From Pelagomonas calceolata (Eukaryota), in contig CAKKNE010000003.1 in assembly GCA_918797485.1 (NCBI GenBank), positions 3,286,001 through 3,350,000 on the forward strand: 64,000 nucleotides of DNA. Reading direction: 5' to 3'. Shown here piece by piece: positions 6,021-62,252 of this stretch. Each line of letters begins with the position of its first letter. The first letter of the stretch is position 1. Below the pieces are notes generated by a model, which worked only from the letters and a program-made list of their open reading frames with translations, did no database searches and had not been told where the DNA came from. The position numbers and the translations under genes were made by a program.

Positions 6021-6369
6021 GCAGAAAATAAGTAGGGTGCGGTGGTATACCGACCCTCTGCAACGGTGTGAGTGAGTTTGGCGTAAGTGACTCCCCGTGT
6101 AATACTAGCACTAAGAATGAATGTGGTGTAAACCTTCATTACGTCAAGGTGGGACTAAGTAGGAGAGTAAGAGGGGCCTAGTGCCAGTGTAGTACTAGCC
6201 TGAGGGGATATATTCTTCGCACTCCCCCTGAACCTTGATATGGTTTGGTTTTTCTTTTTCTTTCAGTTTATAGAGTAGAGCTTCTGTGTCTACTCTATAT
6301 TGTGAACCACAAGCAAACAGTGCTTGTGTAGTTCTCGGTCGGTGTGTCTAAAGTAATTCGCGGACATGA

Positions 6370-6674
6370 TGATATTTACCAAAATGCACATTTCAATGAA
6401 ACGAACGAAAAGGATAGGGGACAATTTTCACCCCATATTCTCCTAAGGGAAACAAGAGCTTACCCTCATGAAAAGGGGGAGTGCGATAAATAGGGCGAAA
6501 TACCCCCCCTATCCTATACCCTTCCTATACACTTACATCACCCTTCAACACGCAACGCGTAATAAACACAGTTAAAACCAAAACTACTTAGTGTATTTAA
6601 GGTAGCTCCGCGGCAGACTATCTCAGCCGCCGTACTCCCAAAGGTGCGTACTCCTTTGGTCTTGCATATTCGCA
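6370..6674 (+). mobile_element. 3' end of an LTR retrotransposon: polypurine tract, then LTR 6482-6674
   Basis: AAAAGGGGGAG is followed by TGCGA...TCGCA; near-identical to the reverse complement of 21563-21875. Confidence 0.85.
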
Positions 6675-7983: not shown

Positions 7984-8234
7984 CTTCTTGTAGTACTAGC
8001 CTGCACAGCAGGTACCTATCCGCTGTAGAGAGAGAAACCTACTAGCCCATCCTACCCTAGATATGTATCTCCCACTCTCTAAATTTGAGTCTATACATTG
8101 AGTGTGTATCGACGCTACGGTGTAAACCAATTTGCTAAAAAACACTCTCGTAGTTAGGTTGGCCCAGCCTCTGGCTGGTGAGCTAGGACCCTGCTACCTT
8201 ACATAACGCTGCGACATACTCTTGCTACGCTGAT

Positions 8235-8316
8235 ACCTACGGTACCGCAGTACGGTACCTACGGTACCTACGGTACCAGCAAGTACCGTAGGTACCGTGG
8301 TACCGGTACCTACGGT
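8235..8316. promoter_or_regulatory. GGTACCTAC/GTAGGTACC array in the divergent TTL/kinesin promoter region
   Basis: TACGGTACCTACGGTACCTACGGTACC...GTACCGTAGGTACCGTGGTACCGGTACCTACGG. The same motif recurs at other gene 5' ends. Function is inferred only. Confidence 0.5.
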
Positions 8317-10798: not shown

Positions 10799-11122
10799 CT
10801 AAGGTGCAATTTACGTGGGAAAAACGCGCAAACTACGCGTAAAGCACCGCTACAGGAGATCCGAGTCCCACTGGCACGTAAAAAACGGCGTAAAAAAGGA
10901 GCCGAGCCAATCGCTAGTTTTATGCTGTTGCGAGGTGCGTACTCTAGGTGTGCGCTTGCGCCGTACTCTAGGTGGCCACCAAGGCCTCGTTTAGTCGCTC
11001 TGCTGCGTATGTGCGGGTTTTACAAATAATTAAAAAGCCCGCGTAAATTGCGCGTAAAACACGCGTAAATTTACGCTGGACCGTTTCTCACGTAAAAAAC
11101 GCCGCACGTAAATTGCACTTAC
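10799..11122. mobile_element. MITE family C (hAT-like, degenerate 8-bp TSD)
   Basis: TIR CTAAGGTGCAATTTACGTG / CACGTAAATTGCACTTAC; flanks CGTGACTC / TGTAACTC (6 of 8 match). Paralogs at 43417-43868 and 23071-23230. Confidence 0.8.
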
Positions 11123-14300: not shown

Positions 14301-16382
14301 GTGCAGCTGTGGTACTAGCCTCGCCAGTGCACCACATGAACGAATCTCACAAATGACGTTTTCGACAGATGCAAATGCATCCCGCAACAATGCTGTCGCT
14401 AACGCCAGATGTTCTACGTGTACTGAATGTAGATCGTGCAGCCCCTCAAGGCCTGAAAGCGCAGATGCTTCGTGGGTCACATCTCTGTAATGATTATTTG
14501 CATTCGACTCGCAGCCTATTGCTAATGCTAGGGAGCAACACGCAATGGAATCAGTAGCTGAATTAGAACCTGGTGACCCCATGCAATAATTTGCAAGTAC
14601 GGCACCAGCAGTATAAGAACCTCGGCGCACAAGCGCGATACTCGCGCGAGACAATGTTAGCGCAGCTCTAGCTACATCACATGTTGCCAGCTCCTCGGCC
14701 GCAGTGATAAATGTTGAGATGCTACTTTGTCTTTCGCAGATCCCGAGTCTTTTTCTAAGTACATCCTTGACATGCATCAAACCTGAAGATTGGAGTAAGT
14801 CGAGGAGGGATGGAGGTAACATAGTGTTAACTACAGCCCGCGAATAGCATGTGACAGCATCAAAAATCGAGGCCTCGTCAATGCAGTAGCAGGTCGACCA
14901 CGCAGCAGCCGCAGCAGCATCAAAGTCTCGCTTAAGCCGGTCCAGACAATTTGCAATCCCAATCCATGGCACGGCGCTGCCACTTGTCCGCAGACTAGCA
15001 CGTTTTAGAAGTGCAGCAGCCACGCCAAACGTACGAGTATCTGTTGCTCTGCGAAGAACTACGAGGCCAGTTGCTGCATAGCCCATCGCAGCTCGCTGAG
15101 CTGACGACATGCCCTCAGCAGACTTGGAATGTGTGGCTACTTTGTCGAGCGCACTACGCTTGGCAGCAAAACTGGCTGCAAGCCAACATGCATCTGCACG
15201 CTGGTTGCATGCACTACTTTCCTTCATATACTTCCCCCATTCATGGCGCGCCAGAGTAAGAAGAACTGTCTCATAATGTGAGTAGCCACATGCTTTTGAA
15301 TCAGAGTAATGTCCAAATGCGGTTGGCGCATTAGAAAGTGCTATCCATGCACGCCGCCACACAGAAGAAATATATTGGTCTGTCTTACTTATCTCCAGGG
15401 CACAATTAAAACACCTGTTAGCCTCGGCAAGTGCTATTGTTGGCTTTCTTTGCTTTCCAAGATCTGAACAGTAAAGAACTCCGTGAAACAATGGCCAGTC
15501 CCCTAGCTGTGCCCGACCCCTAGCTCGGACGCGCGCCGCTCCAAGCTTATCGCCAGATGCGTCTAAAGTTATCGCGCGTCGCGTGCACCACTCAAACATG
15601 ATGTGTGGCGTGGCCCTCCACGGATCAAGCTGTCCGTCAAGAGACGAAAACCACTGCACACGAGCAACAACAGAAGCAGGAGCCATCTTTTTGTGTGTCG
15701 AAAGGCCATGTAGGGCTTCACTCGTGACAATATCCACAGCTTCAGGTGCTACGGCGACAAGTACTTCTAATGCTGTGCGTCTACAGGTCCATGCTATGTC
15801 TGCCAATTCTGGAGATGCCGCCTCAAGTGCAAAAGCACCTTTCCAAAGTGTCGCTCGTAGTTTGTCTGCATACTCTCGCGGAGATATTGACTGCACCCTG
15901 CATTGCTCCTCTGTGGACATCACATAGAGTAATGTGGTAATAGCCCTGGCACTCCACGCACCTTTAGCAGCCAGTGCTTTTGCCCCCTTTAAGCTTGGGG
16001 TGGTGACGATACTGTTAAGTTGCAGCCGTGCAGCATTCACGCTAGCTCCCGCTCCGAGTGCTACTGCAGTGAAAGACCACGCATCTGCTCGTCGTTCTAG
16101 TCGTTCTTTAAGAACATCCGCCAATAGCAACGCGTGGATATTCGTGACCTTGTTTTCCACTGCGCGACTGATGGCTTGGTAGAGCCACTTATCACACGAT
16201 GAATCGTCTCCAGGGTAAGCCGCAAGATCATTGAGAGCTACAACTGCATCCTCGAAAGCTCTACGGCTGGCATGCTGCTTCAACCCAAGCTGCGTGCGTA
16301 ATACTAGTGACCTCACCTCTCCACCGCCCTCTAGTTCTACCCTATTGCAGCGTGCATTCGCACTTGCCTCCCGGCGCGGCAT
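11400..16382 (-). CDS. ESP1: Separase (peptidase C50)
   Basis: About 1660-aa ORF; C-terminus has LPFEAL, VVDPQANL, FLFCGHG (catalytic His), LLMGCSSG (catalytic Cys), LWDVTDRDID and APVCYGLP. First ATG is at 16382; the ORF-track start at 16424 is not ATG. Confidence 0.9.
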   Translation of the reverse strand: MPRREASANARCNRVELEGGGEVRSLVLRTQLGLKQHASRRAFEDAVVALNDLAAYPGDDSSCDKWLYQAISRAVENKVTNIHALLLADVLKERLERRADAWSFTAVALGAGASVNAARLQLNSIVTTPSLKGAKALAAKGAWSARAITTLLYVMSTEEQCRVQSISPREYADKLRATLWKGAFALEAASPELADIAWTCRRTALEVLVAVAPEAVDIVTSEALHGLSTHKKMAPASVVARVQWFSSLDGQLDPWRATPHIMFEWCTRRAITLDASGDKLGAARVRARGRAQLGDWPLFHGVLYCSDLGKQRKPTIALAEANRCFNCALEISKTDQYISSVWRRAWIALSNAPTAFGHYSDSKACGYSHYETVLLTLARHEWGKYMKESSACNQRADACWLAASFAAKRSALDKVATHSKSAEGMSSAQRAAMGYAATGLVVLRRATDTRTFGVAAALLKRASLRTSGSAVPWIGIANCLDRLKRDFDAAAAAAWSTCYCIDEASIFDAVTCYSRAVVNTMLPPSLLDLLQSSGLMHVKDVLRKRLGICERQSSISTFITAAEELATCDVARAALTLSRASIALVRRGSYTAGAVLANYCMGSPGSNSATDSIACCSLALAIGCESNANNHYRDVTHEASALSGLEGLHDLHSVHVEHLALATALLRDAFASVENVICEIRSCGALARLVPQLHSAIIASSAIAALRSGSIGPSSSMLVTVGGDSVVAPFENLCCCEVGTPPYFDDRHHLLRVQGKPSGNVAEAHLAIALDEALIHMQRRAAAEIGLEMFATQMHLANISGATNALGSLEILSRFPPCWCERNLYAIRDSAQSKAMIQGVLWLHLARLWLVRGCSARASKYVQRAASIKQCHKLRQAARGLELCLAISLQDWGDAALVLDLASHDNSIDFPENIRCLEQVLNEGDLLRRIGKLEIAGRCYKSASKVLKVIDECLTESSPWQVDAISGKQSHAGLLRHCQLLISSGARLIDIGCRRSRAVATYRESLRIQSSSIMLRSSWLRYRLARQLFNVASSNTAAASEVLDLLRHAFSYARRKCEWKLAAKSARALTVAALHFVPGAVSSPLVALLAHSSLGRARHAFATSNDSNSLLSRAMAGVDDLLMGLLEVPNAGALGWCDTLETHDRNVLDRLLAPFPKTFSLVAGFISPTGHLVISRLQRGQQPITLCSGLPESWYDSDTSTSPLGTSAKALKASAAGLRADASLLPQRSKLLFTSRSNHTAARRIWWCQRHSLDSVLHAGLVGFDKSWLGAMRALFATKPASILRPKQSAEVPISVEYQIMQLCFWAAPNITLLEANTLLCASRFGVVDIRGTASPCIMKMLLRLWLTLLYKLTILDLKAALDDLRLSNLGLKRPLLGRLAGVLQKAAITSQCVMQPRKVAKARQPMILALDKQLQFLPFEALSVPRSAPISRVPSLAFALSLATGMNLSVSDTINNDIPMRACCVVDPQANLPSTRHKLAKYLGDTKTNATSGLVWSYAALGDMPPRDVAAQLTAKMPNCAAFLFCGHGYGGAYLESAVASNFMSAVLLMGCSSGALSRVGDFEAKGMALELLARGTPIVVAMLWDVTDRDIDRITLYLLQSMAKSPSCPIPDILNAARRETKLRNLNGAAPVCYGLPISLSIIEHTRRCSKFHCKDQN

Positions 16383-16739
16383 GGGACCGTAATACACCGT
16401 AGGTACCGTAGGTACCATTATCAAAGAAGTAAAATCGACTCTTAAACTGGTTTCTCAGGGCACTCCTCTATCAACGACCGACGACGAGCTACGCCCAAGG
16501 GCGCCTAGCGCGGCGGTGGATGCGGCCTCTCCTCCTAAGCTTGAGATACGAGCTTGTACTGGAGCACTTGGACTGGAGCACTTGCATTTGAAATTGGAAT
16601 TGCAAGTTAGTAGTCAGTCACTTAGTCACTTTAATCGCTAGCGCTAGGCGGCCCACCCGTGGAACGAGCGTTGTACTTTCTTCTGTACATTGTAGCCCTA
16701 CCGCAGTATAATATTATATCGAAATTAACGCACTCAAAC

Positions 16740-18750: not shown

Positions 18751-19349
18751 TGCCGGAACACCGGACGCCTAGGTATAGAGCTTCGTATCATTTGGGTTCG
18801 GGGGTCACCCCCCTTAACAACACTGGCCGTGGCAAGGTACAAATCCCAAAGAGGTGTAGTAGAAAACCGCCATCAAGGGCCTTTCTTTAAGTCTTCCTTA
18901 ATTTACTATTATTTCAATTCAAGTTTTTTGCCAGTGTTTTTATCTGGTAGCGACTCGGACCGAGAAATGGCCAAACAGAGCTATATGAACACCATCAAGA
19001 GAAATGAAGGTGTGAACTACTCCGAGTCCACGGTTAGCTGCCCTCGGACCTTTTTTTTGCCCGGCCGGGGGCTGCTCCGCGAGGTTTAAACCCCGTCGAT
19101 TTTAGTGCTATCCGAGCGCAGGGTAAAAAACCCGACGTGGGAAGCGTCCGTTGCAGATTGAAAACGTATGTCCGAGAATCATAAGGTCATCTGGGCTGCC
19201 ACGATTTATCCCTCTAATAACGTAGGTACCGTAACATAAGGCTTCAGCAAAGCTGCGTCGCCAACTCAATACTGCTGGAAGCAGGCCGTGGGCCGAGCTC
19301 GCGCAATCGATCATCCTCGCCAGCGAGTTGGCGCCACGCGGAAAGCAAT

Positions 19350-21562: not shown

Positions 21563-23055
21563 TGCGATTATGCAAGACCAAAGGAGTACGCACCTTTGGG
21601 AGTACGGCGGCTGAGATAGTCTGCCGCGGAGCTACCTTAAATACACTAAGTAGTTTTGGTTTTAACTGTGTTTATTACGCGTTGCGTGTTGAAGGGTGAT
21701 GTAAGTGTATAGGAAGGGTATAGGATAGGGGGGGGGGGGTATTTCGCCCTATTTATCGCACTCCCCCTTTTCATGAGGGTAAGCTTTTGTTTCCCTTAGG
21801 AGAATATGGGGTGAAAATTGTCCTCCATCCTTTTCGTTCGTTTCATTGAACTGTGCATTTTGGTAAATATCATCAGGTAGCACATGGGCATTTGCCTCTC
21901 AATGAATACACTTAATACTACACAGAAGAATTGGTAGAGTGTTCTGTAGATTGTTTTGTGGTAGGTCGTGGTGGTCGTAGTTCGTGGTAATGTAGCGTTG
22001 AGATGTCGAATAATTAGCAATCATTTGGGCCACCATAAGAGCTAGGAGCTTCATTAGGGTCAAAGCGTACCGCACGTCTCACTTGTGGAGTACGAGGAGT
22101 CGTACTAGGAGAAGGTGCGTCAGGCTCATTGAGTTGCTTCTCGAGAATGCGGAGAGCATATCTGTGTAATGGATCACTCATGCCTGCTATTTCAATCCGC
22201 TGACGCTCCTGAGTGGCGACAATGTGATCTAAAGCGATCATAACTACTTGGGTATATGAAGTTCCATCTCCTTTCTCCTCGTCATCTTGTGTTTCAGTCC
22301 ATACAGGGCCCGCTTGAGCTTAACAGTTGTGTGAAGCTTGCCGTCGGTGTCCCGTTACCTTATACCTTTGGGTAGGTCCATATATGACTGCTTTGAATCA
22401 AGATCGGACTGAATAAATGCTTGCGGAATATCGGAGTGCTTGATCGGGAAGCTACCCATCTACTGTCGTCGATATCCTCGGGTGCGTCTAAAATATCATT
22501 CAATGGCTTAGGAAGTCGTTGCAATTTGGACCTCCCTTGTGCGTTTTGACATCTAAAAAGACGACCAGCAGCTTGTACAGTTGTGCACTCATTATGTCAA
22601 ATTGTTCCTTTGTACAAGTGTTGCCAAGATTTATTGACCTCTTATAGCCATCCTCTTCATCCTGATCGGGATCGAGAGGCCAACCTGGAGGTGTCTCGGT
22701 CTGCAACCTAACAAATCTTGAGAATTCAGGTAATCTCTCTCTCACATTCTATGGCAAACGCGGTTCTCCAGAGAATGCCTCTTCTGAGGGCATAACCGTG
22801 TGGAGAAGACTGACATTTTTCTATGTTCGATATGTAGCTTTGACCAGGTTTGCAGATTGCGACATAGTCTTCTGATATCTTTGCTCTACGTGCGCCGGCA
22901 GAATGTTCCTTGAAGTACTTAATGAGCTTGGGTAACTTTTGCCAGTTGCAACCCAAGAAGTATAACATTCTTCTCGTATAAGTTTCTGTCTCGATACCAT
23001 TATCACTAACAAAAAGTGCAAGATGAGGATCTTTGTCCTTAGTTACTAGTTTCAA
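21563..23055 (-). mobile_element. Decayed Ty1/Copia LTR retrotransposon (3' LTR 21563-21760, PPT 21761-21771, RT remnant near 22360-22450) inserted into a MITE
   Basis: TG...CA LTR with 5-bp inverted ends. Minus-strand peptide IKHSDIPQAFIQSDL..SYMDLPKG matches the Copia RT D...AF...L...YM..P.G motif. Confidence 0.8.
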
Positions 23056-23070
23056 GTTTAGGCTCTTTTC

Positions 23071-23230: not shown

Positions 23231-23502
23231 GACTGCCCGTAGTGGCCGCGGGGATATCGGCGACGTCTCTGCGGGTTGGCCGCGGGGTCACGGTCACGGT
23301 GGCAGGACGACGCATGGGGCGGCTAGGCCCGCGGCCCAAGCCTGAGGACCAATAGATATAATAAGGCCCATATACCGCAGTAAGAATACCAAGTACGTTG
23401 ATTTTAGTGTACTATACTACCTAGAATCCAACGCGTTATCAGATCGATTTGGTGCGTGTCAAAGCTGCTTTGTTGACGCTGCTTGGATCTGAATGTCAGG
23501 AG

Positions 23503-25359
23503 ATGACTACGCCCGAAAAGTCTCCTACCAGAGATCATCCTGAAGAGTTCCCAAGCTCAAAAAACGAGAAAGCCACCATTGAGCTTGAAAATCAATACGA
23601 GCACAAGCTAGCTCTCGAGCTGGAACGCTTTGACCATCTGTCTGAAGAAATAGAATCCATTCAACAGAGATGCGAAAGCTTATTGCAAGCCCAAACAATA
23701 GAACACGAGGCTGCGATTCGAGATGCAGAAGGACGCACGAAACGCGTCGAAAAGGAGCTGCGCCAACAAATAGAGCGCCTGTACGAAGATGCAAAGCACA
23801 ATGAACATATGTTCCGGGAGGTAAATAGAGAATTGTGATACGGTAGGTATTGACCAGCAGCATTACGGTAGGTTCTTGACCAGCAAGAGCATGAGTACGA
23901 AACAGAGCTTCAACAACTTATGGCTGCTGCTCAAGCAGAGTTGGCTATCGAACGTGAATGTACAGCTGAAGCTAGGGGCCTAATTCAGGCTCGAAATACA
24001 AAAATTTCACGACTTGATAAGCGTCTGGATGCGCTCAAGACTGCCAGTCATGCTCGGAATGTCCTCTTGACAGCCGAGAAAGTACGCAATGCGAAGCTTG
24101 AAGCCACCCTACGACACTTTAAGCGCCACATGGAAGAGCGCGAGTCTACGCTTGAAGACAAAGAACTTTCCATTTTAAATCTTCGGCGAAAAAATGTGAC
24201 TTTGGATAATTTCCGGCTTGTGCTGGATCATCGAGTACAACGACTCGTACAGGAACGAGGGCCTATCACTCGACATGTTGAGGGTCTAGAAGCTCATATT
24301 ACCGCGATGTACGATGAACTAGAAGCAGACTATTACGAGAGGAAGAGGAGGAAGCAACAGCTAAATTCCAAGGACTCAAAAGTAATCTCTTTGGGACAGG
24401 AGACTGCAACCTTACGAGGTTTACTTCGGGAGAGAGATGCGTATATTGCCTCCTTTAAGCGCATGTTGTCCACGCTGGTTGAGGTTACGACACCGAAGGA
24501 CTTGGAAGACGCAGTCAAAAATGCATATTGCAAGTATATAAGAGATGAAGGATCACAACATCGATCGAGTGGCAATTCCTTTGAAGAACATCAGGAATGC
24601 AGACAAGTCTATCCTTATGGTCTGGATAATGCACTAGTTGAGGCGCATTCACAGCGAATTCGTGCTCAGAAAGCCACAGAGATTTCAGAGCATCGTCTTT
24701 GGGTTGAAAGGGGCAATGCCCAGCGGCTGCAGAGGGCCAGACTTGGTATGTCTTTGTTCACATTTTCCTTGCATCAACTCGCGATTAGGCGAAAACTCAC
24801 TCTTAATTGCTGAATGCAGTTCGTTAAGAGGCGAAAGCTTATCACTCGCACGAGATATCAGTCATTTGCGACAAGTAATGAAGGACCACGACGAAAAAAA
24901 GCGTCGCAAGGCACCCCAGTCGCACAAAATGGCGCAACATCATGTCTCCCCCACTCATGGTGAAAGTCATTTCGCGCTCGGCCCTAGTCTAGCGCTGCAG
25001 GCAGCTGATTTACCATTGGAATCATCTGGCAGTCAGGGGTTTCCAAGACGTAAATTCGATAGAGAACCGAAGCCGCCTACTTGGCGACCGACTCAAAAAA
25101 GACTTTATCGAGGATCTACAAGGGCACTAAATCTATTGTCTGATCGCGATGCCCGAATCGTTCAAGTAAGTCATCTTTCTTCACACATTTTGTAACTCAA
25201 AAACCATAGATGGAATCTGCACATGATGCAAACACGAGAGTAATTGAAACTCAAAAAATGGAAATCAAGCAGCTTCGTAAACAGTTGCAAAAGGAGCATG
25301 GTCCAGGGGAGTCTAGAGATGGCCAAAGGTCGACCTCTAAAATCATAAAAATGGTGTAA
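23503..25359 (+). CDS. CFAP57/WDR65-like coiled-coil protein (C-terminal half only, no WD40 region seen); introns 23821-23871, 24746-24788, 25166-25209
   Basis: LENQYEHKLALELERF, KELSILNLRRKNVTLDNFRLVLDHRVQRL..ERGP and GENSLLIAECSSLR resemble CFAP57 C-terminal motifs. Start uncertain. Confidence 0.65.
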
Positions 25360-27803: not shown

Positions 27804-29004
27804 ACATTAAAAAAGTAGGCTGCTGTATTTTATTTGCTACCAGGTCCGTTTCGATGCCCAAGGCCGCCCGGAGGGCTGCATAGGAAGGGGGGGGATATAT
27901 TCTGTGGGCCCCACCCCGACCTCCCCCCATCCGAGCAATCCCCTCGTTTTCGTGGCCAACGCGGCGGCGTTGCCGCGGCCATGGCGGCGCCCGCGGGTTG
28001 GCCCTGGAAGGCCCCAGGGCACGAACCCGCGCGGCTTGAGCATACCTTGGCTCGCTTGTGTCGACTCCTTTGCCTAAAGTACTGTTTAGCCCGTATAACA
28101 GTGGTTTTCATGTAAACGGGTTTTGTGCGCTTCAAAAATAACCCAGCAGCGGAGTCCGTTGGAGACGCTGTCTGCGGGAGAAGAAAGTTCAGTAAAATTT
28201 ATATCGATCATACAGAGGGTTCTAGGAAGACTAATAATAGCGGCTGGGAGAGCTACGCCCGGGCCGGGCCGATTCCCGCCGAATTTCCTGGACATCCTAT
28301 TTTTTATGTCTGGAGAGGTATATACGCTCCTCAGGTTGGAGATCAGTCGGAAACCTGGACTTGCGGACTCGCAAAGCCGGAAGACGGGTTGAGCCTGAGT
28401 AGTATAAAGAATTTAAAAAAGCAAAACCAGCGCATTTTTATCGACCGGGCTTTAATCGACCGGGTCCCCGATCCCACACTTTCCCCCTAAAACGCCGAAA
28501 TTTTTTACTCAGCCCCGCCCTTTCGGTGCCAACTTGGCTAGCCGCCGCGATTTCCGCCGAGGCGCCACGTGTGAGAGAGAAAACACGAGTCTGCCACCAT
28601 ATCCGGCTTTACGAGCACCTCATACGCCCCGTGTGAACGATTTCTCTACTGGATGCGACCGCCAGAGTGACTTGGCTCCGAGCGCAGCGCGCCGCGAAAG
28701 CGTCGCCCGCCAGGAGTTTCGGCGCGCGCGGGCCGTTTCCGGTGATCTCGGCGACTCTGTCTATTCGTAATATCGCTTCCGCAACCACGTGCAGGCGGAC
28801 ATGGGCCCACGTGTGCGAGGCGTGCCGCACGCCGCCGACGCGCGCCACGGCCACTTCGACCTTGATGGCAAACGCGCTAGCGGCCGTCTGTTGTCTCTTA
28901 CGCGTCCCGGAAATCTCCCGCGGCCCGCTGGTACAAGCTGGTAAGAGTACCGTGGTAAGTCGTAGAGACCCCCCCCCTCGATCCCTCCCCCCTCGAGCGC
29001 GACG

Positions 29005-34687: not shown

Positions 34688-34814
34688 GCTGTCCTGCTGA
34701 ACTGAACAAGAAGCGCAGCACTTACACTAGTACCGTAGGAGGTACCGTAGGTACCTGCGTACCGTACACTCATACACTCATCTGCGGTGCCTGTTCTACG
34801 GTGTTGCCAGGCAG

Positions 34815-36769: not shown

Positions 36770-37144
36770 CTAGGTTGGCACTTACCCGAGGGGTTATTAA
36801 CCCCAATCGTGGCCCGGGGTCAGTAACCCGGGTAATTACCCGTTAGTACGGGTTATTAACCCCGGGATCTTATAGAGGGGTAGGGGGAGGGGGGCTCACG
36901 GGCCACTGGCGCGGGCCTGGGCCGCGCCAGGCCACATGACTTGGTACTTGCCTTGGCGCACCTGTACGTATCCAAAAGCTCAACGGGCTGCTTGCGCCCA
37001 TCCGCTTGCCCGGAGGGGCCTTTCGCTAATCTCACTAAACGGGTTTAGTCGAACCCGTCGGGTTGGGCGGGTACTAACCCCGGATCCCCTCCGAGGGGTA
37101 ATGATAGGTTAAAAACGGGTAATTACAGGTAAGTGCCAACCTAG
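36770..37144. mobile_element. Intact 375-bp hAT-like MITE (family B) with perfect 8-bp TSD
   Basis: TIR CTAGGTTGGCACTTACC / GGTAAGTGCCAACCTAG; TSD CCACTGGG at 36762-36769 and 37145-37152; internal GGGTTATTAACCC motifs. Confidence 0.92.
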
Positions 37145-40386: not shown

Positions 40387-41673
40387 CACCAAGTCCCGGC
40401 GTCGATACAAGCGTAAAACCTAGTACTAGTACTAGGGGCACTTTAGGTCCGGGTTTTGGGGCCCTGGAGGACGGCTAGCCGCGTTTTTCGCGCGGATTTT
40501 TGTACCGAGCCCTGCACCGGGTCGATTACGACCCCGCGGAGGTGGTTTGGGGCTGGGGGCGACCGCCTCTGATTTAAGGGAATTTATTTCGTGACGAAAA
40601 ATGGCCTCGGGATGGGCAACGGTACACTAAATCGACCCGAGGTGAGCCCTTAGCCCGCGGGATAGCTCCGATGACACCCGGCGATGGCTGAAACGGCCAT
40701 ACCCGCCCAGGTGGGGAGGGGTGGCGTGCGGCCCGGCAGTAGGCTTATCGGCTCGGGGTTCGTGACGGGAACAAGAACTTGCACCCACAGCCACAGCTCA
40801 ACAGAAGCACCCTCGGGGACCACATAGCTTCCCCGCTCCTCGGGCGTGTAGGAGACCATTTCAAAAATGTGAATTTTGGCCGCTTGTTCGATGGCTTTTG
40901 CGGCTCCAGCGCGGAGTCAAAACGCGAGAGGCCCGATCCGGGCACGATTCCGCCGGCTAGAGGGACACATTCGCTCGAGGGGGATGGCGGTCACCGACGG
41001 TGGGGAGCTCGTAACGGCGGATAACGGGGGCGACAATATTTTGGCTTTCCACGCCATCGCCGCGATTCCCATCAGGAAAGCCTCAACCAACTCGAAAGGT
41101 CACCACGCGGTGGTATGAATAGTATCGATGCGCGGGGTACCGCGTTTTCGACCAGGGTGCTGCTACGTGGCTTTCCAAAGCCTCGACAGAAGCGCCGCAC
41201 AAACGCTTCGCGCCGAGCGTCGCGACCTGCCCATCGTCGGTCGTGTCCATTTTCCTACAGCGCAGGTTGGCGTCATCGCTGAAACACCCCTGAACACCCC
41301 ATCTCGCGTCTCGAGATCGTAATCATGGTAATGCTAAGCTGCTGGTTTTGGCGTGCTGGTGGTCCGTGGCGCTGCGGTTGGTTCTCTCTTTCTCGGCAGG
41401 GCTGCGCGATGCAGGGTGAGCCGCTATGTACTCACATCTCTCCTAATCGTCTACGCTGGCCAGCACGCAGCGTTTAAAGACGAAATCGGGCCATCCAGAG
41501 CTCGTCTCGACGCGAGAGCCGATTCGCGCAAAGGAGCTATAACTTTGCGGAGGCGTCGCCGGAGCCCGTCCGACAGCCCTCGAGGCCTAGGGGGAGCTAT
41601 AGTCTCGTTTTCCTTTTGTTTGCTAAACCTGTTTTGTCTTAAAGTGCCCCTACTAGTAGTAGAGCCGGTGTGG

Positions 41674-42147
41674 TTGAGTGATGGCTAGGTTGCAGGTTGC
41701 AGGTAGACTACGGCAGGTACCCGAGGTTGTAGATTTCGAACGCGCGGCCACTTTTACAAAGCCGGAGAAACGCGGCCTGGAGAGGCGCCGGCTAAACATC
41801 ATGGAACGGGCTCCAATTCGCTTGCGTCGTGGAAACTCGTGCCGTTCGGGGCGGTTGCGCTGGCGACTCCAATTTCGCTTTTTTGACGACGTCGAGCTAG
41901 AGAATTTCCGGCCGACGGCGCGAGGCCTCTATAACGCAAGACTAGGTAAGTGAAGAATGAAGCCCTTGTGCTCATCAGATAGCCGCCTTGGACCGGTGTC
42001 CGTTCGCGTGCTTCGCCTCCCATTTGACAAGCGACGTTTCGCCCTTAGGCCCGCTATACTTTAAAAGCGGCAGCGCGTTCAAAACCCATAACCTCAATTA
42101 CCCGCCCTAGTCTTCCTGCAGCAACCTGCAACCTAGCCATCGCTCAA
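41674..42147. mobile_element. Foldback/MITE with ~90-bp imperfect TIRs; no TSD found
   Basis: TTGAGTGATGGCTAGGTTGCAGGTTGCAGGTAGACTA...GAACGCGC.GCC.CTTTTA versus the reverse complement of 42060-42147. Confidence 0.8.
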
Positions 42148-43416: not shown

Positions 43417-43868
43417 CTAGGGTGCGATTTACGTGGAAAAAACGCGTAAGTTACAAGTAAAGCACCGCTACAGGAGATCCCACGTAAAAAACGGCGTAAA
43501 AAAGGAGGTATCCAAAAGTCCTTCCAGGGCTCCCGAAGCCGGCGCTAGCAGCCCTTTTAGACACTAGCTCGCGATCAGCACCTCGCAGAGTGTGGCTGCC
43601 CCAAACGTTGTCAGAGCCGAGCCAATTGCTAGTTGCATGCTGTTGCGAGCAAGGTGTGCACTCTAGGTGTGGGCTTATGCGCCGTGCTCGTGCTGCTATT
43701 GAACTGCGTGGCCACCAAGGCCTTGTTTAGGCGCTCTGCCTGCGTGTGTGCGGGTTTTATAAATAAATGCACGCGTAAATTACGCGTAAATTGCGGCGTA
43801 AATGACGCTGGACCGTTTCTCACGTAAAGAACGCCCCGGGCCGGGGCCGTGCGTAAATCGCACCCTAG
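43417..43868. mobile_element. MITE family C, longer copy
   Basis: Perfect 17-bp TIR CTAGGGTGCGATTTACG / CGTAAATCGCACCCTAG. Contains about 120 bp absent from the 10799 copy. TSD not clean. Confidence 0.85.
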
Positions 43869-44092
43869 CAGAGCGGAGATTAAGGGAGATTTAACTATTC
43901 TGGCATAGTAAACTTTTGAAAAGCTTTTGAAAACCGGGAAGGTTTTTTGAAAAAAACGCAGGGCTCCGGGGGCTTGCATTCCCTCCTATAACGCGCGGTC
44001 GCGCGGCGGCGCGGCGGCGAGCCACGGGCCTGTCTTCGGCGAACGAAGCGCCATGCAGTCGTATGAGTATCGTTCGGTTCGCTCATGGTCCA

Positions 44093-44690
44093 AAGAGATC
44101 AATGTGACACTTACTGAGGGGCGAAAAAAATAATTTCTTTAATTCGCGATATTGACGGTCCCGCCATGACGGCCGCGTCGATGGAATCCTGTCGATTTGC
44201 GGCCCGGAGGTCTCCCAGGGGTCGATTTTGGTCGGTGGTAGACGTGCGCACGCGCCTACAGCGCGTGCGCCACCCCTTCCATCAGTCTATACTTATCAAG
44301 CAAGGTGCTCAGCCAGCCAACCAGCTTGAGCCCAAGTCCTCAAAGTTTTGGATCCAGAGTTCTCTGGAGAGCCCCAAGCACCGGCGCATGCGGCGTGGGC
44401 GACTACCCGCCCCAGACCTATCCGAGAGGGAGTCCGCGAGCCGAGCTGCCCCCGAAAAAAGTGTGCAATTTGGACCTGATGGCACCGTTCCCGTCAAAAA
44501 CGCCAATTACCCGAGGGGCCCCAGTAGTCGCCGTAGCGGTCTCGTTGGACCCCATACTACCCCAACGAGTCAATTACAAGTATATGAAAAAAAAAAATAA
44601 GAAGGGTACTTTTGGCTGCCCACGCTCGGGACGCGAACATCTTGATCTGGACCTCGCGTAAGTCCGTCGGTCATAAAATAAATGATCGCG
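44093..44690. mobile_element. Candidate 598-bp insertion with 10-bp TSD (MULE-like)
   Basis: TCATGGTCCA at 44083-44092 and 44691-44700; only weak terminal symmetry. Confidence 0.45.
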
Positions 44691-55892: not shown

Positions 55893-56960
55893 GGAAGCCA
55901 GCGCGATCGTTGGCTGTTTTCGCGTCCCCGAATCTCCAACACCGTCTTACATTACATGCCAATATAGTCGAATAACCATCGAATATTTAATTCTCCGGGT
56001 CCGGCTACCTACGCACCGTTGGTACCTACGGCCCGGTTACCATGGTACCTACGGTACCGTGGGTACTACCTACGGTACGGTAAGGAGCTACACCTACAGA
56101 TCTTACCTCCGATACCTACCATAATGCCGTACGGCAGCGTGTTATGCAGCCGATGAGAATAATGGTACAGAGAATATCGTGACGAGTATATGCGTTAAGT
56201 TGTTTTCGTCTACGCGGGATATCCATCCACTCGTGCTAAAAATTAACGAGGCGCCAGAGGAGCTCTCCTTGAGGCCCTCAATGCCAAGAGAAAACCATCA
56301 GTTGGAACCAGGGCCGCTTGGGACCGCGGAGTTCTGCTCAAAAGATGCTGGGTCCTTGTTACAGCTCTTGGATCTTCGGCGCACCCGGGACTCGATAGCA
56401 CATTCGATGGGGGAGACACTGGCATACAATGTGCCGGCTCCTAATCGTGCCAGCTGTCCCCCAGCTCTGGCGGTCATTGAGGCAGAGGTCTCGCGCGTTG
56501 AGGCCAGCATTCAGGGAGGGCTTCGCAAGGTGTGGCTGGGACAGCAACAAGCATGCAAGACTTCCGGCCCATCACATGGGACTTACCCCTTGTGCGGGCC
56601 CGGCGGCGACGTCTGGGTGTCGGCCGCAATGACGTCGCGAGCGGCGTAATTGTGGGGGGCGGGGTGTGGGGGCGTATAGAGGGGCAGATCACAGGTCAAT
56701 ACAAGCGCTCGAGCACCGGTGCGCGCAGCAAGCGTGCGCAATAGAAGACCTCAGATGTGTGCAGGTGGCGCTTGGAGCCGAGGCAAACCGCGAGGCGGAG
56801 GCAAAACTTGCTCTTGCTCGCGAGCTGACAGCTGCGCACACAGTTTGTTGCTGTGTGGTACACTTAGGTCTTGTTATGAAAAACCTAAATGTAGGCAGCA
56901 CTCATACAAGCCAAGGCGCACACGCAAGAGACCCAGGATAAGTGGGACTCATACTCGCGC

Positions 56961-59395: not shown

Positions 59396-61582
59396 TCAGG
59401 AGTCAACTGGACCTGCCCAAAGAGCCTCACATTGTTCATCAAAAAGTGTGCTAGCTACATCATAGATTTGATTGTCATTAATGAGGAGATGCCGTAGTGA
59501 TTCTATTGACCTAGAGTCAAGGGAGCTTAGGATTTTACGGCCCTTCGCATCATGCATTGCAGCATTCATTACAGCTTCCCTTGCAGATAGGATGGCATCT
59601 GGCCGAGATTCAAGGACAGAATTCAAGAGTTTAATCGATTTTTGTTTTTCTGAGGCGAGGAGGATCAAGTACGTATCAGTTTCAAGTCTAGAAATGGCAT
59701 CTGCAACCTCGGCTTTGTTACCTGGACCAAATTGCTTGACTCTTGCAGCTCTTGGGTCATTGTGTCTTTCTAGCTCGTCGATCCTCAAAGGCAAAAGAGC
59801 ATCAAGCAGTGTGTTGCCTCCAAGAACAGTTGCCTTTGCATGATTACGTAGTCGCTCCTCTAGAATGCTAGGGTCTATGGCCTTGGGACTCTCGTTGTCC
59901 GCTGCAAGTTGAGTCAGGGGGTCCATGATCACAATGATTAAAGCACATGCTCTTGATTCAGTTGCACAGGCGTCTTTTGCCATAGAACCAACAATAACTT
60001 TGACATTTCGCCACCTGCCTCGCCGCCAGTCAGTGGCAGTATCAACGACAGCATTACTACTCAGTTCTTGAGGCGCAAAAGAAAAAACTGCAACTCTTTC
60101 CTGCGGCACCGAACTGTTATGGGCATCCTTAGTTTTGCGAGTATGCCTATCTTGCGTAGTTCTTCTATCCCCCCTTTTTGCAGATCGGGCAAGCTCGTCG
60201 AGGCCAAATCCAAGCAATCTGTGCATTAATATTAACGCATTGCGTTGGAAGATTGCCCTGTGCTCGGTGAACCTTGGAATCGCATGCGAGTGAAGTACAG
60301 TGCAGCCTCTGCCGCCTAAAATACCGTCAACAGCTTTGATGGAGGCGGCCGTTATTAGCGTAGTACCAACTGCATCTAATATGCTAGATTGTGTAATCAC
60401 CTTCCAATGTGATGCATCGTACCCACCACATCGCAAGGGAAGAGGAGCATTCAAATTCTTTATGTGCCCTCGGCAATTTAAAGTCCCTTGGAGAGCTATC
60501 CAAGGCGCTACCTCGAGAAACAATGCTGTTCGAAGCGCTGGCTGATCCATCGGATTCTGGATCAGTGAGAGTGCCAAAGACTCATGCCAGTAAACCTCAC
60601 TCCAGCGCCGCAACACACGCCTTGAGCCATCACATGAGGAGACGGCCATGACACCCGTGTTGGGTTCTGGGATATCTCCGCCTTTTAAAATTCCGAACAT
60701 GCGCCCAAGCATTGGCCGGTGATGTTCTGAAGGTGCAGTCACAAATGCAAACCAAGGACCCTCATCAGACACCATTTGAAATGCAGAGATCAGTATCGCG
60801 GGATCACAAACCAAAGTGTCCGCATCCAAAAAAATGGCGGCCGTACCAAAAGTTTCTAAAGCCAGTCGGAGTGCAACCATTTTGGCGCTGCGCAATTGGC
60901 GGACAGCCGCCCAAGCTGTCACTTTTGAGCTCCTTCGCTCCCTCTCTTTTTTTCTATTCAACTCGATGGTTGCACTCAAACTGTTGCCTTTGTTTCGTAT
61001 TCTGGGGTCAGCAATAGTGAATGCTTCGAATTCGGGAAGAGATGTAAAATTCATACCTAGCCCATCTACTGATGCGACAAAATCCCACCAATAAGCTTGG
61101 CCATAGAATAATGCCTGCGATGCGGACAAATGCAGTCCGAAATCAGATGTCACCAGGAGGGTGCCCACGCTGTTATCCATGATTCTCCGCACACTGGTTG
61201 CAGAAACGGATGCCTTTTGAATTGTTCCATGGCCGACTGCAGCGTACACAACACCATACTGCATTGATATGGGGTTATTTGACGAACTAGAAGTAAACAG
61301 CCGTTTGTGACCAGGGGATAAGTCCGTTGTGACTCTTTCCAGGAAATTAGCTGCTTTTCGAGCCAAATTAAGGCAATGAGATATCATGGGTGATTCAATC
61401 AGTTGCGGCGTCATTTTTTTAGAGTCCCCTCTTGAGTTCTCGCGGAGGTTTGCATTTCTCCCCAGATCCTCGCGCGTTTGCCATTTCGTCCATTGCACAT
61501 TCCCATGATTCCCTGATAGTACCCATGCGAAGATTCGAAAATTGAGGAGCAGGACAAGCGCCCTGACCAACTTTTCTGGCAT
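59396..61582 (-). CDS. Membrane-anchored nucleotide-diphospho-sugar (GT-A) transferase-like protein with an extra C-terminal domain
   Basis: N-terminal hydrophobic anchor; IFLDADT (DxD), EPNTGV, DQPALR.AL, LNCRG and VLHSH. Confidence 0.7.
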   Translation of the reverse strand: MPEKLVRALVLLLNFRIFAWVLSGNHGNVQWTKWQTREDLGRNANLRENSRGDSKKMTPQLIESPMISHCLNLARKAANFLERVTTDLSPGHKRLFTSSSSNNPISMQYGVVYAAVGHGTIQKASVSATSVRRIMDNSVGTLLVTSDFGLHLSASQALFYGQAYWWDFVASVDGLGMNFTSLPEFEAFTIADPRIRNKGNSLSATIELNRKKERERRSSKVTAWAAVRQLRSAKMVALRLALETFGTAAIFLDADTLVCDPAILISAFQMVSDEGPWFAFVTAPSEHHRPMLGRMFGILKGGDIPEPNTGVMAVSSCDGSRRVLRRWSEVYWHESLALSLIQNPMDQPALRTALFLEVAPWIALQGTLNCRGHIKNLNAPLPLRCGGYDASHWKVITQSSILDAVGTTLITAASIKAVDGILGGRGCTVLHSHAIPRFTEHRAIFQRNALILMHRLLGFGLDELARSAKRGDRRTTQDRHTRKTKDAHNSSVPQERVAVFSFAPQELSSNAVVDTATDWRRGRWRNVKVIVGSMAKDACATESRACALIIVIMDPLTQLAADNESPKAIDPSILEERLRNHAKATVLGGNTLLDALLPLRIDELERHNDPRAARVKQFGPGNKAEVADAISRLETDTYLILLASEKQKSIKLLNSVLESRPDAILSAREAVMNAAMHDAKGRKILSSLDSRSIESLRHLLINDNQIYDVASTLFDEQCEALWAGPVDS

Positions 61583-62252
61583 GTTGACAGGGATCCTAAG
61601 AAATGCAACATAGCCGCATGGTGACGCTACGTGCGTGTCGGGTGTCGCTCTGATGCTTCGCTCCAGCGCGGGGGTCCAGCTTACTTTCTAACTTTAGGTA
61701 CCGCAGTATGATAATACATTGATATTAAGCACTCAGGGTACTTTGAACCAACTCGGATGAGTGCGAGTTTCTTGCACCGCTGCCCATCACGCGGTCCATT
61801 ACGACGGGGTTGCGCCGGCTTGGGGTTGCCCGAGACGCAGCAGCCTATAGTAGTACGAGTGAGTACGCTGTATTTCACTATTAACGGCCGTGTCACGGTG
61901 ATTTGCCAGTCAACTCTCTCTCTCGTTTCACCCGCGGAGTGCTTGCCAGCCCAGGGGCGGTTCGTTGCCAAAAAATGATCTAAGCGACGGGATTTTGTGC
62001 GGGGGGTGTCCGGGCGCCTTGTGCATTCAGCCACGGGGCCGCAACAAGCGTGAAGACAACCCAAACTTCCTGACCGCCCACCACTAGTGCGGCGGTGGAG
62101 CCCAAGCTGTGGGGTATGATTCGCACCAACCCGTGTCGGCCGGACATACAATGGCGCTGAGCGCAGGACTACTCCCATTGCAGCATGAAGCGTGTGCAAA
62201 ATACCGGCCATTCGATCAGACGCCGCTCAGATCCAGAAAATTTCCTGCAGCT

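Follow-up and report, generated by a model that had tools for sequence, protein, structure and literature searches.

The window analysed here is a 64-kb stretch of DNA with a GC content of 51%. It carries, in order, genes for Ebp1/kinesin/DBP2, a TTL-like protein, separase, RSP3, RCC1, RPN11, HECT, MOCS3, importin-beta, PSMA6, an LRR protein and a C2-kinase, in agreement with the gene order of Pca_3p18540-18730 on chromosome 3 of Pelagomonas calceolata (supplementary table of PMC9481584), an alga that is abundant in the ocean. The window DBP2 was 82% identical to an Aureoumbra protein. Since troughs of 52% GC are interpreted as centromeres in the available part of PMC9481584, the composition of the window would fit a place in the low-GC centromeric trough of chromosome 3. 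The published model Pca_3p18540 (PMC9481584, as far as available) apparently fuses Ebp1-like, kinesin and DBP2 domains in one gene, whereas the spliced RNA contigs of the three are separate.

Stacks of short words delimited by TA were found at five sites in the window. Array 1 (8234-8316) lies between the divergent TTL-like (ATG 7983, minus strand, 251 bp from the array edge) and kinesin (ATG 8375, plus strand, 59 bp) genes and contains four CCGTAGG units in both orientations together with CCGCAG, CCAGCAAG, CCGTGG and CCGG words. It adjoins FAM0, a dispersed repeat of about 200 bp (8028-8225), and is one substitution apart from its allele on the metagenome locus L014. The spliced RNA contig of kinesin extends to 8303, into the array, which is a weak hint; the RNA contigs of separase, RSP3 and TTL end before reaching the arrays, contig X15 is mostly unspliced, and RNA contigs cannot show where transcription starts.

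Array 2 (16396-16416) lies at the 5' end of separase between two in-frame ATGs, downstream of the one at 16418 and 14 bp upstream of the second at 16382. The preliminary description had placed it just before the separase ATG, which is right if translation starts at 16382 and wrong if it starts at 16418. The upstream ATG overlaps with a CCAT word bounded by TA, and translation from it would pass through the array in frame, giving an N-terminal extension of 12 residues in the window and 15 in allele L014, where one additional 9-bp unit adds three codons in frame. Judged from the overlap, this ATG may be a start codon made by a transposon scar.

Array 3 (19221-19233) consists of one decayed unit and CCG, with the DBP2 ATG (19350) 117 bp downstream. 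Array 4 (34728-34767) occupies the 127-bp divergent promoter of HECT (ATG 34687, minus strand, 43 bp from the array) and MOCS3 (ATG 34815, plus strand, 48 bp), and its allele L020 has two additional units in the opposite orientation. Array 5 (56006-56120) is located 114 bp upstream of the LRR-like ATG 55892 (minus strand) and faces a plus-strand gene; an X-box/RFX reading of its word at 56036 was dropped because RFX is, to our knowledge, not a stramenopile family. Shorter occurrences were two single words, CAAGCTGG and CCGTGG (28932-28957), 48 bp upstream of the RPN11 ATG (29005); GG and CCGCAG (61695-61708), 113 bp upstream of an ATG at 61582 (minus strand); a single CGAGCTTG (2476-2487) about 45 bp upstream of the Ebp1/PA2G4-like ATG (2521); and, in the separase/RSP3 divergent promoter (16547-16708), a single CGAGCTTG at 16547 and CCGCAG at 16699. 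A further single word was found at 23373, and a short CGG-GG run at 23839-23870 apparently falls within an intron. The five arrays and the weaker copies at 28947 and 61695 given in the preliminary description were thus all recovered.

The 11-mer TACCGTAGGTA had eight copies in the window compared to 0.01 expected, and none of 100 shuffles reached eight. Long words were present in 10 of 14 5' flanks of 300 bp (11 counting the short word at DBP2) and in none of 18 3' flanks of the same length, three of which belong to approximate 3' ends, in line with the earlier claim that arrays are not seen at 3' ends. The window flanks are not independent, since divergent gene pairs have arrays in common. 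Among the flanks checked, no array words were found in the PSMA6/47123 divergent promoter or on the 5' side of importin-beta.

Position of the arrays in metagenome loci

An 18-mer scan of metagenome contigs gave at least 125 stretches, and 123 loci (about 617 kb) were used. Having been chosen by this seed, they form 97 independent groups including the window. Foreign loci were left out (L001, viral; L032, L036, L112 and L010, by composition or appearance), as were L034 and L048, which carry bacterial gene families, from the position tests and the window's own locus group from the metagenome 5' tests. On the giant-virus contig L001 the same 9-mer is repeated in frame within a long ORF (1501-1540), an unrelated case. 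Gene models were based on ORFs. A Pfam search covered 266 ORFs of 190 aa or more; a codon model trained on 50 Pfam positives found the correct frame in 49 of 50 left-out cases, and distances were taken to the ATG, not to the transcription start. The position test set was made up of 72 arrays from 56 loci, each locus being at least 1.1 kb long.

In this set, 35 coding starts versus 2 stops were located within 300 bp of an array, and 19 starts versus 2 stops of Pfam-confirmed genes within 600 bp. Within 1 kb, the coding end closest to an array was a start in 46 cases and a stop in 9, with none for 17 arrays, and no array (0/72) lay inside a kept ORF. The median distance from array to ATG was 130 bp, with words ranging from -45 to over 1000 bp. 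These results bear out the proposal that arrays mark gene 5' ends, and divergent promoters, where they had been said to occur often, were frequent sites in both the window and the loci. Away from the seed, long words were detected in 7 of 58 5' flanks compared to 0 of 84 3' flanks (P=0.0015), indicating that the 5' bias is general and extends beyond the window, yet that most promoters are without words.

Low GC3 was found in 25 of 48 metagenome loci, compared to 453 of 16,667 genes located genome-wide in low-GC regions according to the available part of PMC9481584, which suggests that arrays are enriched in centromeric regions. This hint is weakened by assembly bias and by high-GC3 genes inside the trough itself (DBP2, 0.68; PSMA6, 0.66).

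The same positions could be read in another way, with the words as dimeric transcription-factor sites or a core-promoter element multiplied by selection. The strong 5' bias at a median of 130 bp, the many arrays in divergent promoters and the spaced palindrome TACC-NNN-GGTA would agree with such a reading, and a similar TA-bounded word of Phytophthora has been read as a transcription-factor site (PMC3520976, available part). A core-promoter element would be expected at most promoters with fixed distance and orientation, whereas 51 of the 58 unascertained 5' flanks lacked long words and spacing and orientation varied. Furthermore, alleles differ by whole units, words have appeared at empty TAs within repeats and split the site when they nest, and the 85%-identical Ebp1 homologue on L003 has no such word upstream in the printed stretch. 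We therefore regard an origin as regulatory sites as rather improbable, and the core-promoter option of the preliminary description is not supported as an origin; the arrays may nevertheless have been co-opted later for promoter function. Locus L003, whose Ebp1 homologue shows the 85% protein identity, carries related repeats and the same arrays and possibly represents a sister lineage sharing the element described below.

Word grammar, empty sites and allelic gains

After CC, with the seed removed, CGG followed 198 times, compared to 34 for CC, 13 for CCG and 12 for GG, so that the array unit is the 7-mer CCGTAGG with a duplicated TA. Independent CC and CGG scars, which had been proposed as separate footprint words, are ruled out by these bigram counts. 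Other TA-delimited words were CC, CCG, CCGCAG (53), CCACGG (45), CCAG (35) and CCGG (24), and the rarer CCAGCTTG (15), CCAGCAAG (15), CCATGG (8) and CCGCAGG (8). An origin of CCGCAG and CCGTGG by CpG decay of CCGCGG was rejected, the count of the parent word being 0.

Adjacent units occurred in all four orientation pairs (72, 66, 34 and 26, seed included), in uninterrupted runs of up to 7 units. The halves of split units formed matching brackets in 27 of 72 cases versus 9.1±2.7 in shuffles, none of 2000 reaching 27, as expected if the internal TA of a unit had been hit again. C followed TA in 223 of 370 flanks against a background of 26%, a target preference that is inflated by decayed words at array edges.

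The repeat FAM0, bounded by TA on both sides, was represented by 34 repeat segments in the loci and the window, many of them flanked by an array on one side or on both, and its internal TAs allowed empty and filled copies of one site to be compared. At one internal TA, 11 of 14 distinct copies were empty, two carried CCGTAGG plus TA and one carried the reverse word. A second FAM0 site (L118) and the comparison of L098 with L046 gave the same pattern. The summed contig depth of FAM0 was far above that of neighbouring bins in three of four runs, and no FAM0 was found in viral contigs. FAM0 was ruled out as a centromeric satellite, its copies being dispersed, and as donor of the 7-mer, its ends not yielding the words.

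When one array was compared on different contigs, as alleles or recent duplicates, 10 of 22 comparisons differed by whole word-plus-TA units, 1 showed a complex difference and 11 were identical or differed by substitutions only. Unit number, whose polymorphism between strains had been put forward as a check, varied between contigs. In four comparisons (L020/window, L077/L058, L041/L053 and L069/L059) the gained word had no neighbour in the same orientation.

These gains also bear on another reading, in which the arrays are a 9-bp minisatellite whose growth at open promoters comes from slippage and template switching. Template switching can be favoured by palindromes, and some of the allele differences are simple additions of tandem units (window 16396 versus L014; L025 versus L120). 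Under slippage, however, new units should copy an adjacent unit of the same orientation, while units arose at empty TAs without a neighbouring copy and the four comparisons above are exceptions. In addition, the same limited set of words is seen again at loci that are not linked, and the words correspond to the ends of an independent element. A minisatellite origin is accordingly very improbable, and slippage may be a secondary source of tandem copies.

We consider it likely, on sequence grounds, that the arrays are footprints, stacked on one another, from the excision of a small non-autonomous DNA transposon that targets TA, has the unequal ends 5'-CCGT…CAGG-3' and probably prefers gene 5' ends. 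Directly observed are gains of a word plus TA at empty TAs in both orientations, the nesting, the 5' bias and an element that matches; together with the allele differences, they uphold the option of piled-up TA-anchored footprints in the preliminary description.

The candidate donor and a second class of scars

A complete 100-bp copy of the candidate donor was found at L018:3330-3429 with TA on both sides (TA-CCGTATTCA…TAGCAGG-TA). The RUVBL1/TIP49 ATG lies 60 bp downstream of it, and the search seed is 6.5 kb away. Another short copy occurs on L025, and the pieces found on L022 and L024, which overlap, point to a form of about 655 bp, so that two repeat ends found separately belong to one element with the ends CCGT…CAGG. 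Left ends were present in 8 locus groups, 3 of the 8 deviating from TA-CCGT, and right ends in 9 of 124 loci (7 groups), of which 5 of 7 run straight into TA and 2 of 7 deviate from CAGG-TA; the exception on L024 reads as a scar of the second class described below, followed by TA. No donor ends were found in the window itself. The TA flanks of the L018 copy and the gain of TA with each word are consistent with a TA target and TA duplication.

Joining the donor ends gives CCGTAGG (436, seed-inflated), CCGTGG (45), CCGG (24) and CCGCAGG (8), and the footprint words would accordingly read as donor-end bases between TAs. CCGCAGG gives weak support for end joining, being only about twice as frequent as the remaining variants with one base of the unit changed (1-4). 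CCGCGG, the word that perfect CCG…CGG ends would give, had 0 occurrences. The donor has almost no terminal inverted repeat (TIR), just CC and a weak block about 21-33 nt inside; its best end-to-end alignment was matched by 15 of 1000 shuffles and the other three, two of them mis-registered by 2 nt, by 140-401 of 1000. A search for TA-flanked TIRs missed it for this reason and found L018:10077-10511, a single copy with the ends CCAT…GTGG and a possible source of CCATGG and CCGTGG. An element on L054 has CGG…CCG ends that do not join to the 7-mer; the earlier suggestion that a TA-CGG…CCG-TA family could explain part of the pattern would hold in that L054 could give single CGG, CCG or CG words, and fails for the 7-mer.

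No donor was found among the loci for CCGCAG, CCAG, CCAGCTTG and CCAGCAAG. On L020 (1-925), other repeat-like DNA takes the place of the HECT side of the MOCS3 promoter from the TA just upstream of array 4. This DNA ends in CTCCAG-TA, has an 82%-identical piece in the window (44048-44646) and is a possible donor of the CCAG and CCGCAG words.

No transposase family was matched by the 91 short ORFs from the repeats. At least one Tc1-like DDE gene is present in the annotation (Pca_3p03790), unlinked to the donor, and the best candidate for the transposase is a DDE protein of the Tc1-like type. Among the compared loci, empty and scarred alleles of one site were found, and an occupied and scarred pair was not. 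Since, in addition, the ends are barely inverted and no transposase was found, excision of this donor is something we infer.

In the proposed mechanism, the element would insert at a TA located some 20-300 bp before an ATG and duplicate the TA. Staggered cuts inside the element ends would leave a few terminal bases at excision, and end joining would fix CCGT+AGG as the main scar, CCGT+GG, CC+GG, or a single CCG or CC. With each scar would come a new internal TA as well as GG-TA-CC junctions; as favourable targets, these would lead to stacking and nesting, and the minor words CCGCAG, CCAG, CCAGCTTG and CCAGCAAG would derive from sister families.

Several other repeats were observed. A TA-flanked 1.2-kb element with GG…CC ends (40433-41652), about 45 bp upstream of the importin-beta ATG (40386), is set in TAG/TAC words; it is not the 7-mer donor and shows that TA-targeting elements occur at 5' ends. 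More TA-flanked inverted-repeat elements with GG…CC ends lie at 41686-42135, 43418-43867 and about 36770-37144 of the window. Two near-identical inverted copies of a repeat of about 310 bp are 15 kb apart (6364-6674 and 21563-21878), the second adjoining a fragmented minus-strand ORF region (21900-23060) without a Pfam match. A family with CAGCGAT inverted ends (L073:7207-7574 and other loci) has flanks that are constant but differ from each other, with TA at one end and AA at the other, and no clear target site duplication (TSD), and L062 carries between two arrays a 2.1-kb foldback-like element with many internal inverted repeats (300-2460).

The top over-represented 8-mers outside the arrays fit the formula XY-C-rc(XY)-G-XY, which corresponds to a 6-nt insertion that turns any dinucleotide XY into XY-C-rcXY-G-XY. 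This second class was found 2402 times compared to 297 expected (460 kb, both strands), about 8-fold, with all 16 dinucleotides enriched, while a direct-copy control gave 294 versus 232. The window had 246 versus 37 expected, with 114 of 123 window sites outside gene spans; one example (10860-10865) is present in the window and absent from allele L014. Outside the arrays, 54 of 67 distinct six-base indels were exact second-class insertions; counts of 4-, 5- and 9-nt indels include array-against-array alignments and were unused except for cases with unique flanks. The class accounts for the TAGTACTAG, AACTTGAA, GACTCGGA and CACTGGCA words. Among 457 inverted-repeat pairs, no convincing candidate for a donor with a 2-bp TSD and C…G ends was found. 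With 92 sites in 97 5' flanks and 130 in 102 3' flanks, it showed no 5' bias, and tolerance of non-coding change alone therefore does not explain the bias of the arrays.

The second-class insert contains an inverted copy of the flanking bases, a hairpin-type trait, and the array unit can be parsed likewise. The same element with the same 5' targeting could then have left its scar through flank hairpins, TA-CCG-(inverted TA)-GG-TA, by a transposase not like that of Tc1/mariner. This is also favoured by the enrichment of a hairpin-type formula in the same DNA and by a donor without proper TIRs. However, the form XY-CCG-rcXY-GG-XY is restricted to TA (387 of 398, seed included), the left end of the donor already reads CCGTA and several frequent words have no internal TA, making hairpins an unlikely source of the array unit. 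We are doubtful, to a somewhat lesser degree, of the combined proposition that a TIR-less promoter-seeking family, dense at centromeres, would tune transcription or extend the separase N-terminus and that a sequence-blind hairpin transposase would leave the dominant 6-base scar.

Relation to known footprints and implications

According to the available portions of the cited papers, excision of mariner and Stowaway elements leaves the TSD and element ends (PMC4561436), footprints hold 1-4 bp from each end with re-insertion beside an old footprint on record (PMC1925063), and scar lengths are quoted as 0-3 bp for ZB and 2-4 bp for Tc1/mariner, ZB and SB preferring AT palindromes with a slight genic bias (PMC7913693). 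The Pelagomonas arrays resemble Tc1/mariner and Stowaway footprints in the TA target, the TA kept on both sides, the few end bases between and the re-insertion beside a footprint. In contrast to the 2-4 bp of Tc1/mariner (PMC7913693), the Pelagomonas scar has 7 nt, with one dominant form from unequal ends; the donor is almost without TIRs and up to 7 nested units form a run, unlike in Tc1/mariner and Stowaway; and the arrays are strongly 5'-biased, unlike ZB and SB. By analogy, the arrays most likely work like Tc1/mariner footprints, with a putative kinship to that group. The second class is similar to the Ac/Ds hairpin (P-nucleotide) footprints in the available part of PMC5873905, with microhomology-joined inverted flank copies centred on one base, but differs in its constant centre bases (C, G), its 2-bp duplication of any sequence and its one dominant 6-nt product.

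The TACATGTA motif of Phytophthora promoters is likewise an abundant TA-bounded near-palindrome upstream of stramenopile genes. It equals the C. elegans Tc1 footprint, as the authors note in the available part of PMC3520976, who rejected a footprint origin and proposed a transcription-factor site. Unlike that reading, the empty and filled alleles and the donor of Pelagomonas favour footprints. The word 'promoter' is absent from the main text of PMC9481584 as far as available, and in the open literature, apart from subscription papers and the supplements of 10.1101/2024.10.30.620910, we found no description of such arrays in pelagophytes.

Motif searches would take these words for promoter elements. 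Scars can be told from binding sites by comparing empty with filled sites and by analysing nesting, and both approaches could be used on the TACATGTA motif of Phytophthora, whose reading is disputed. The second class of scars provides a simple, countable mutational signature. As footprints, the arrays would bear witness to intense cut-and-paste transposition in a genome that has been described as poor in repeats and mark promoters that are likely open, and alleles with different scars would be natural material for testing their effect on expression.
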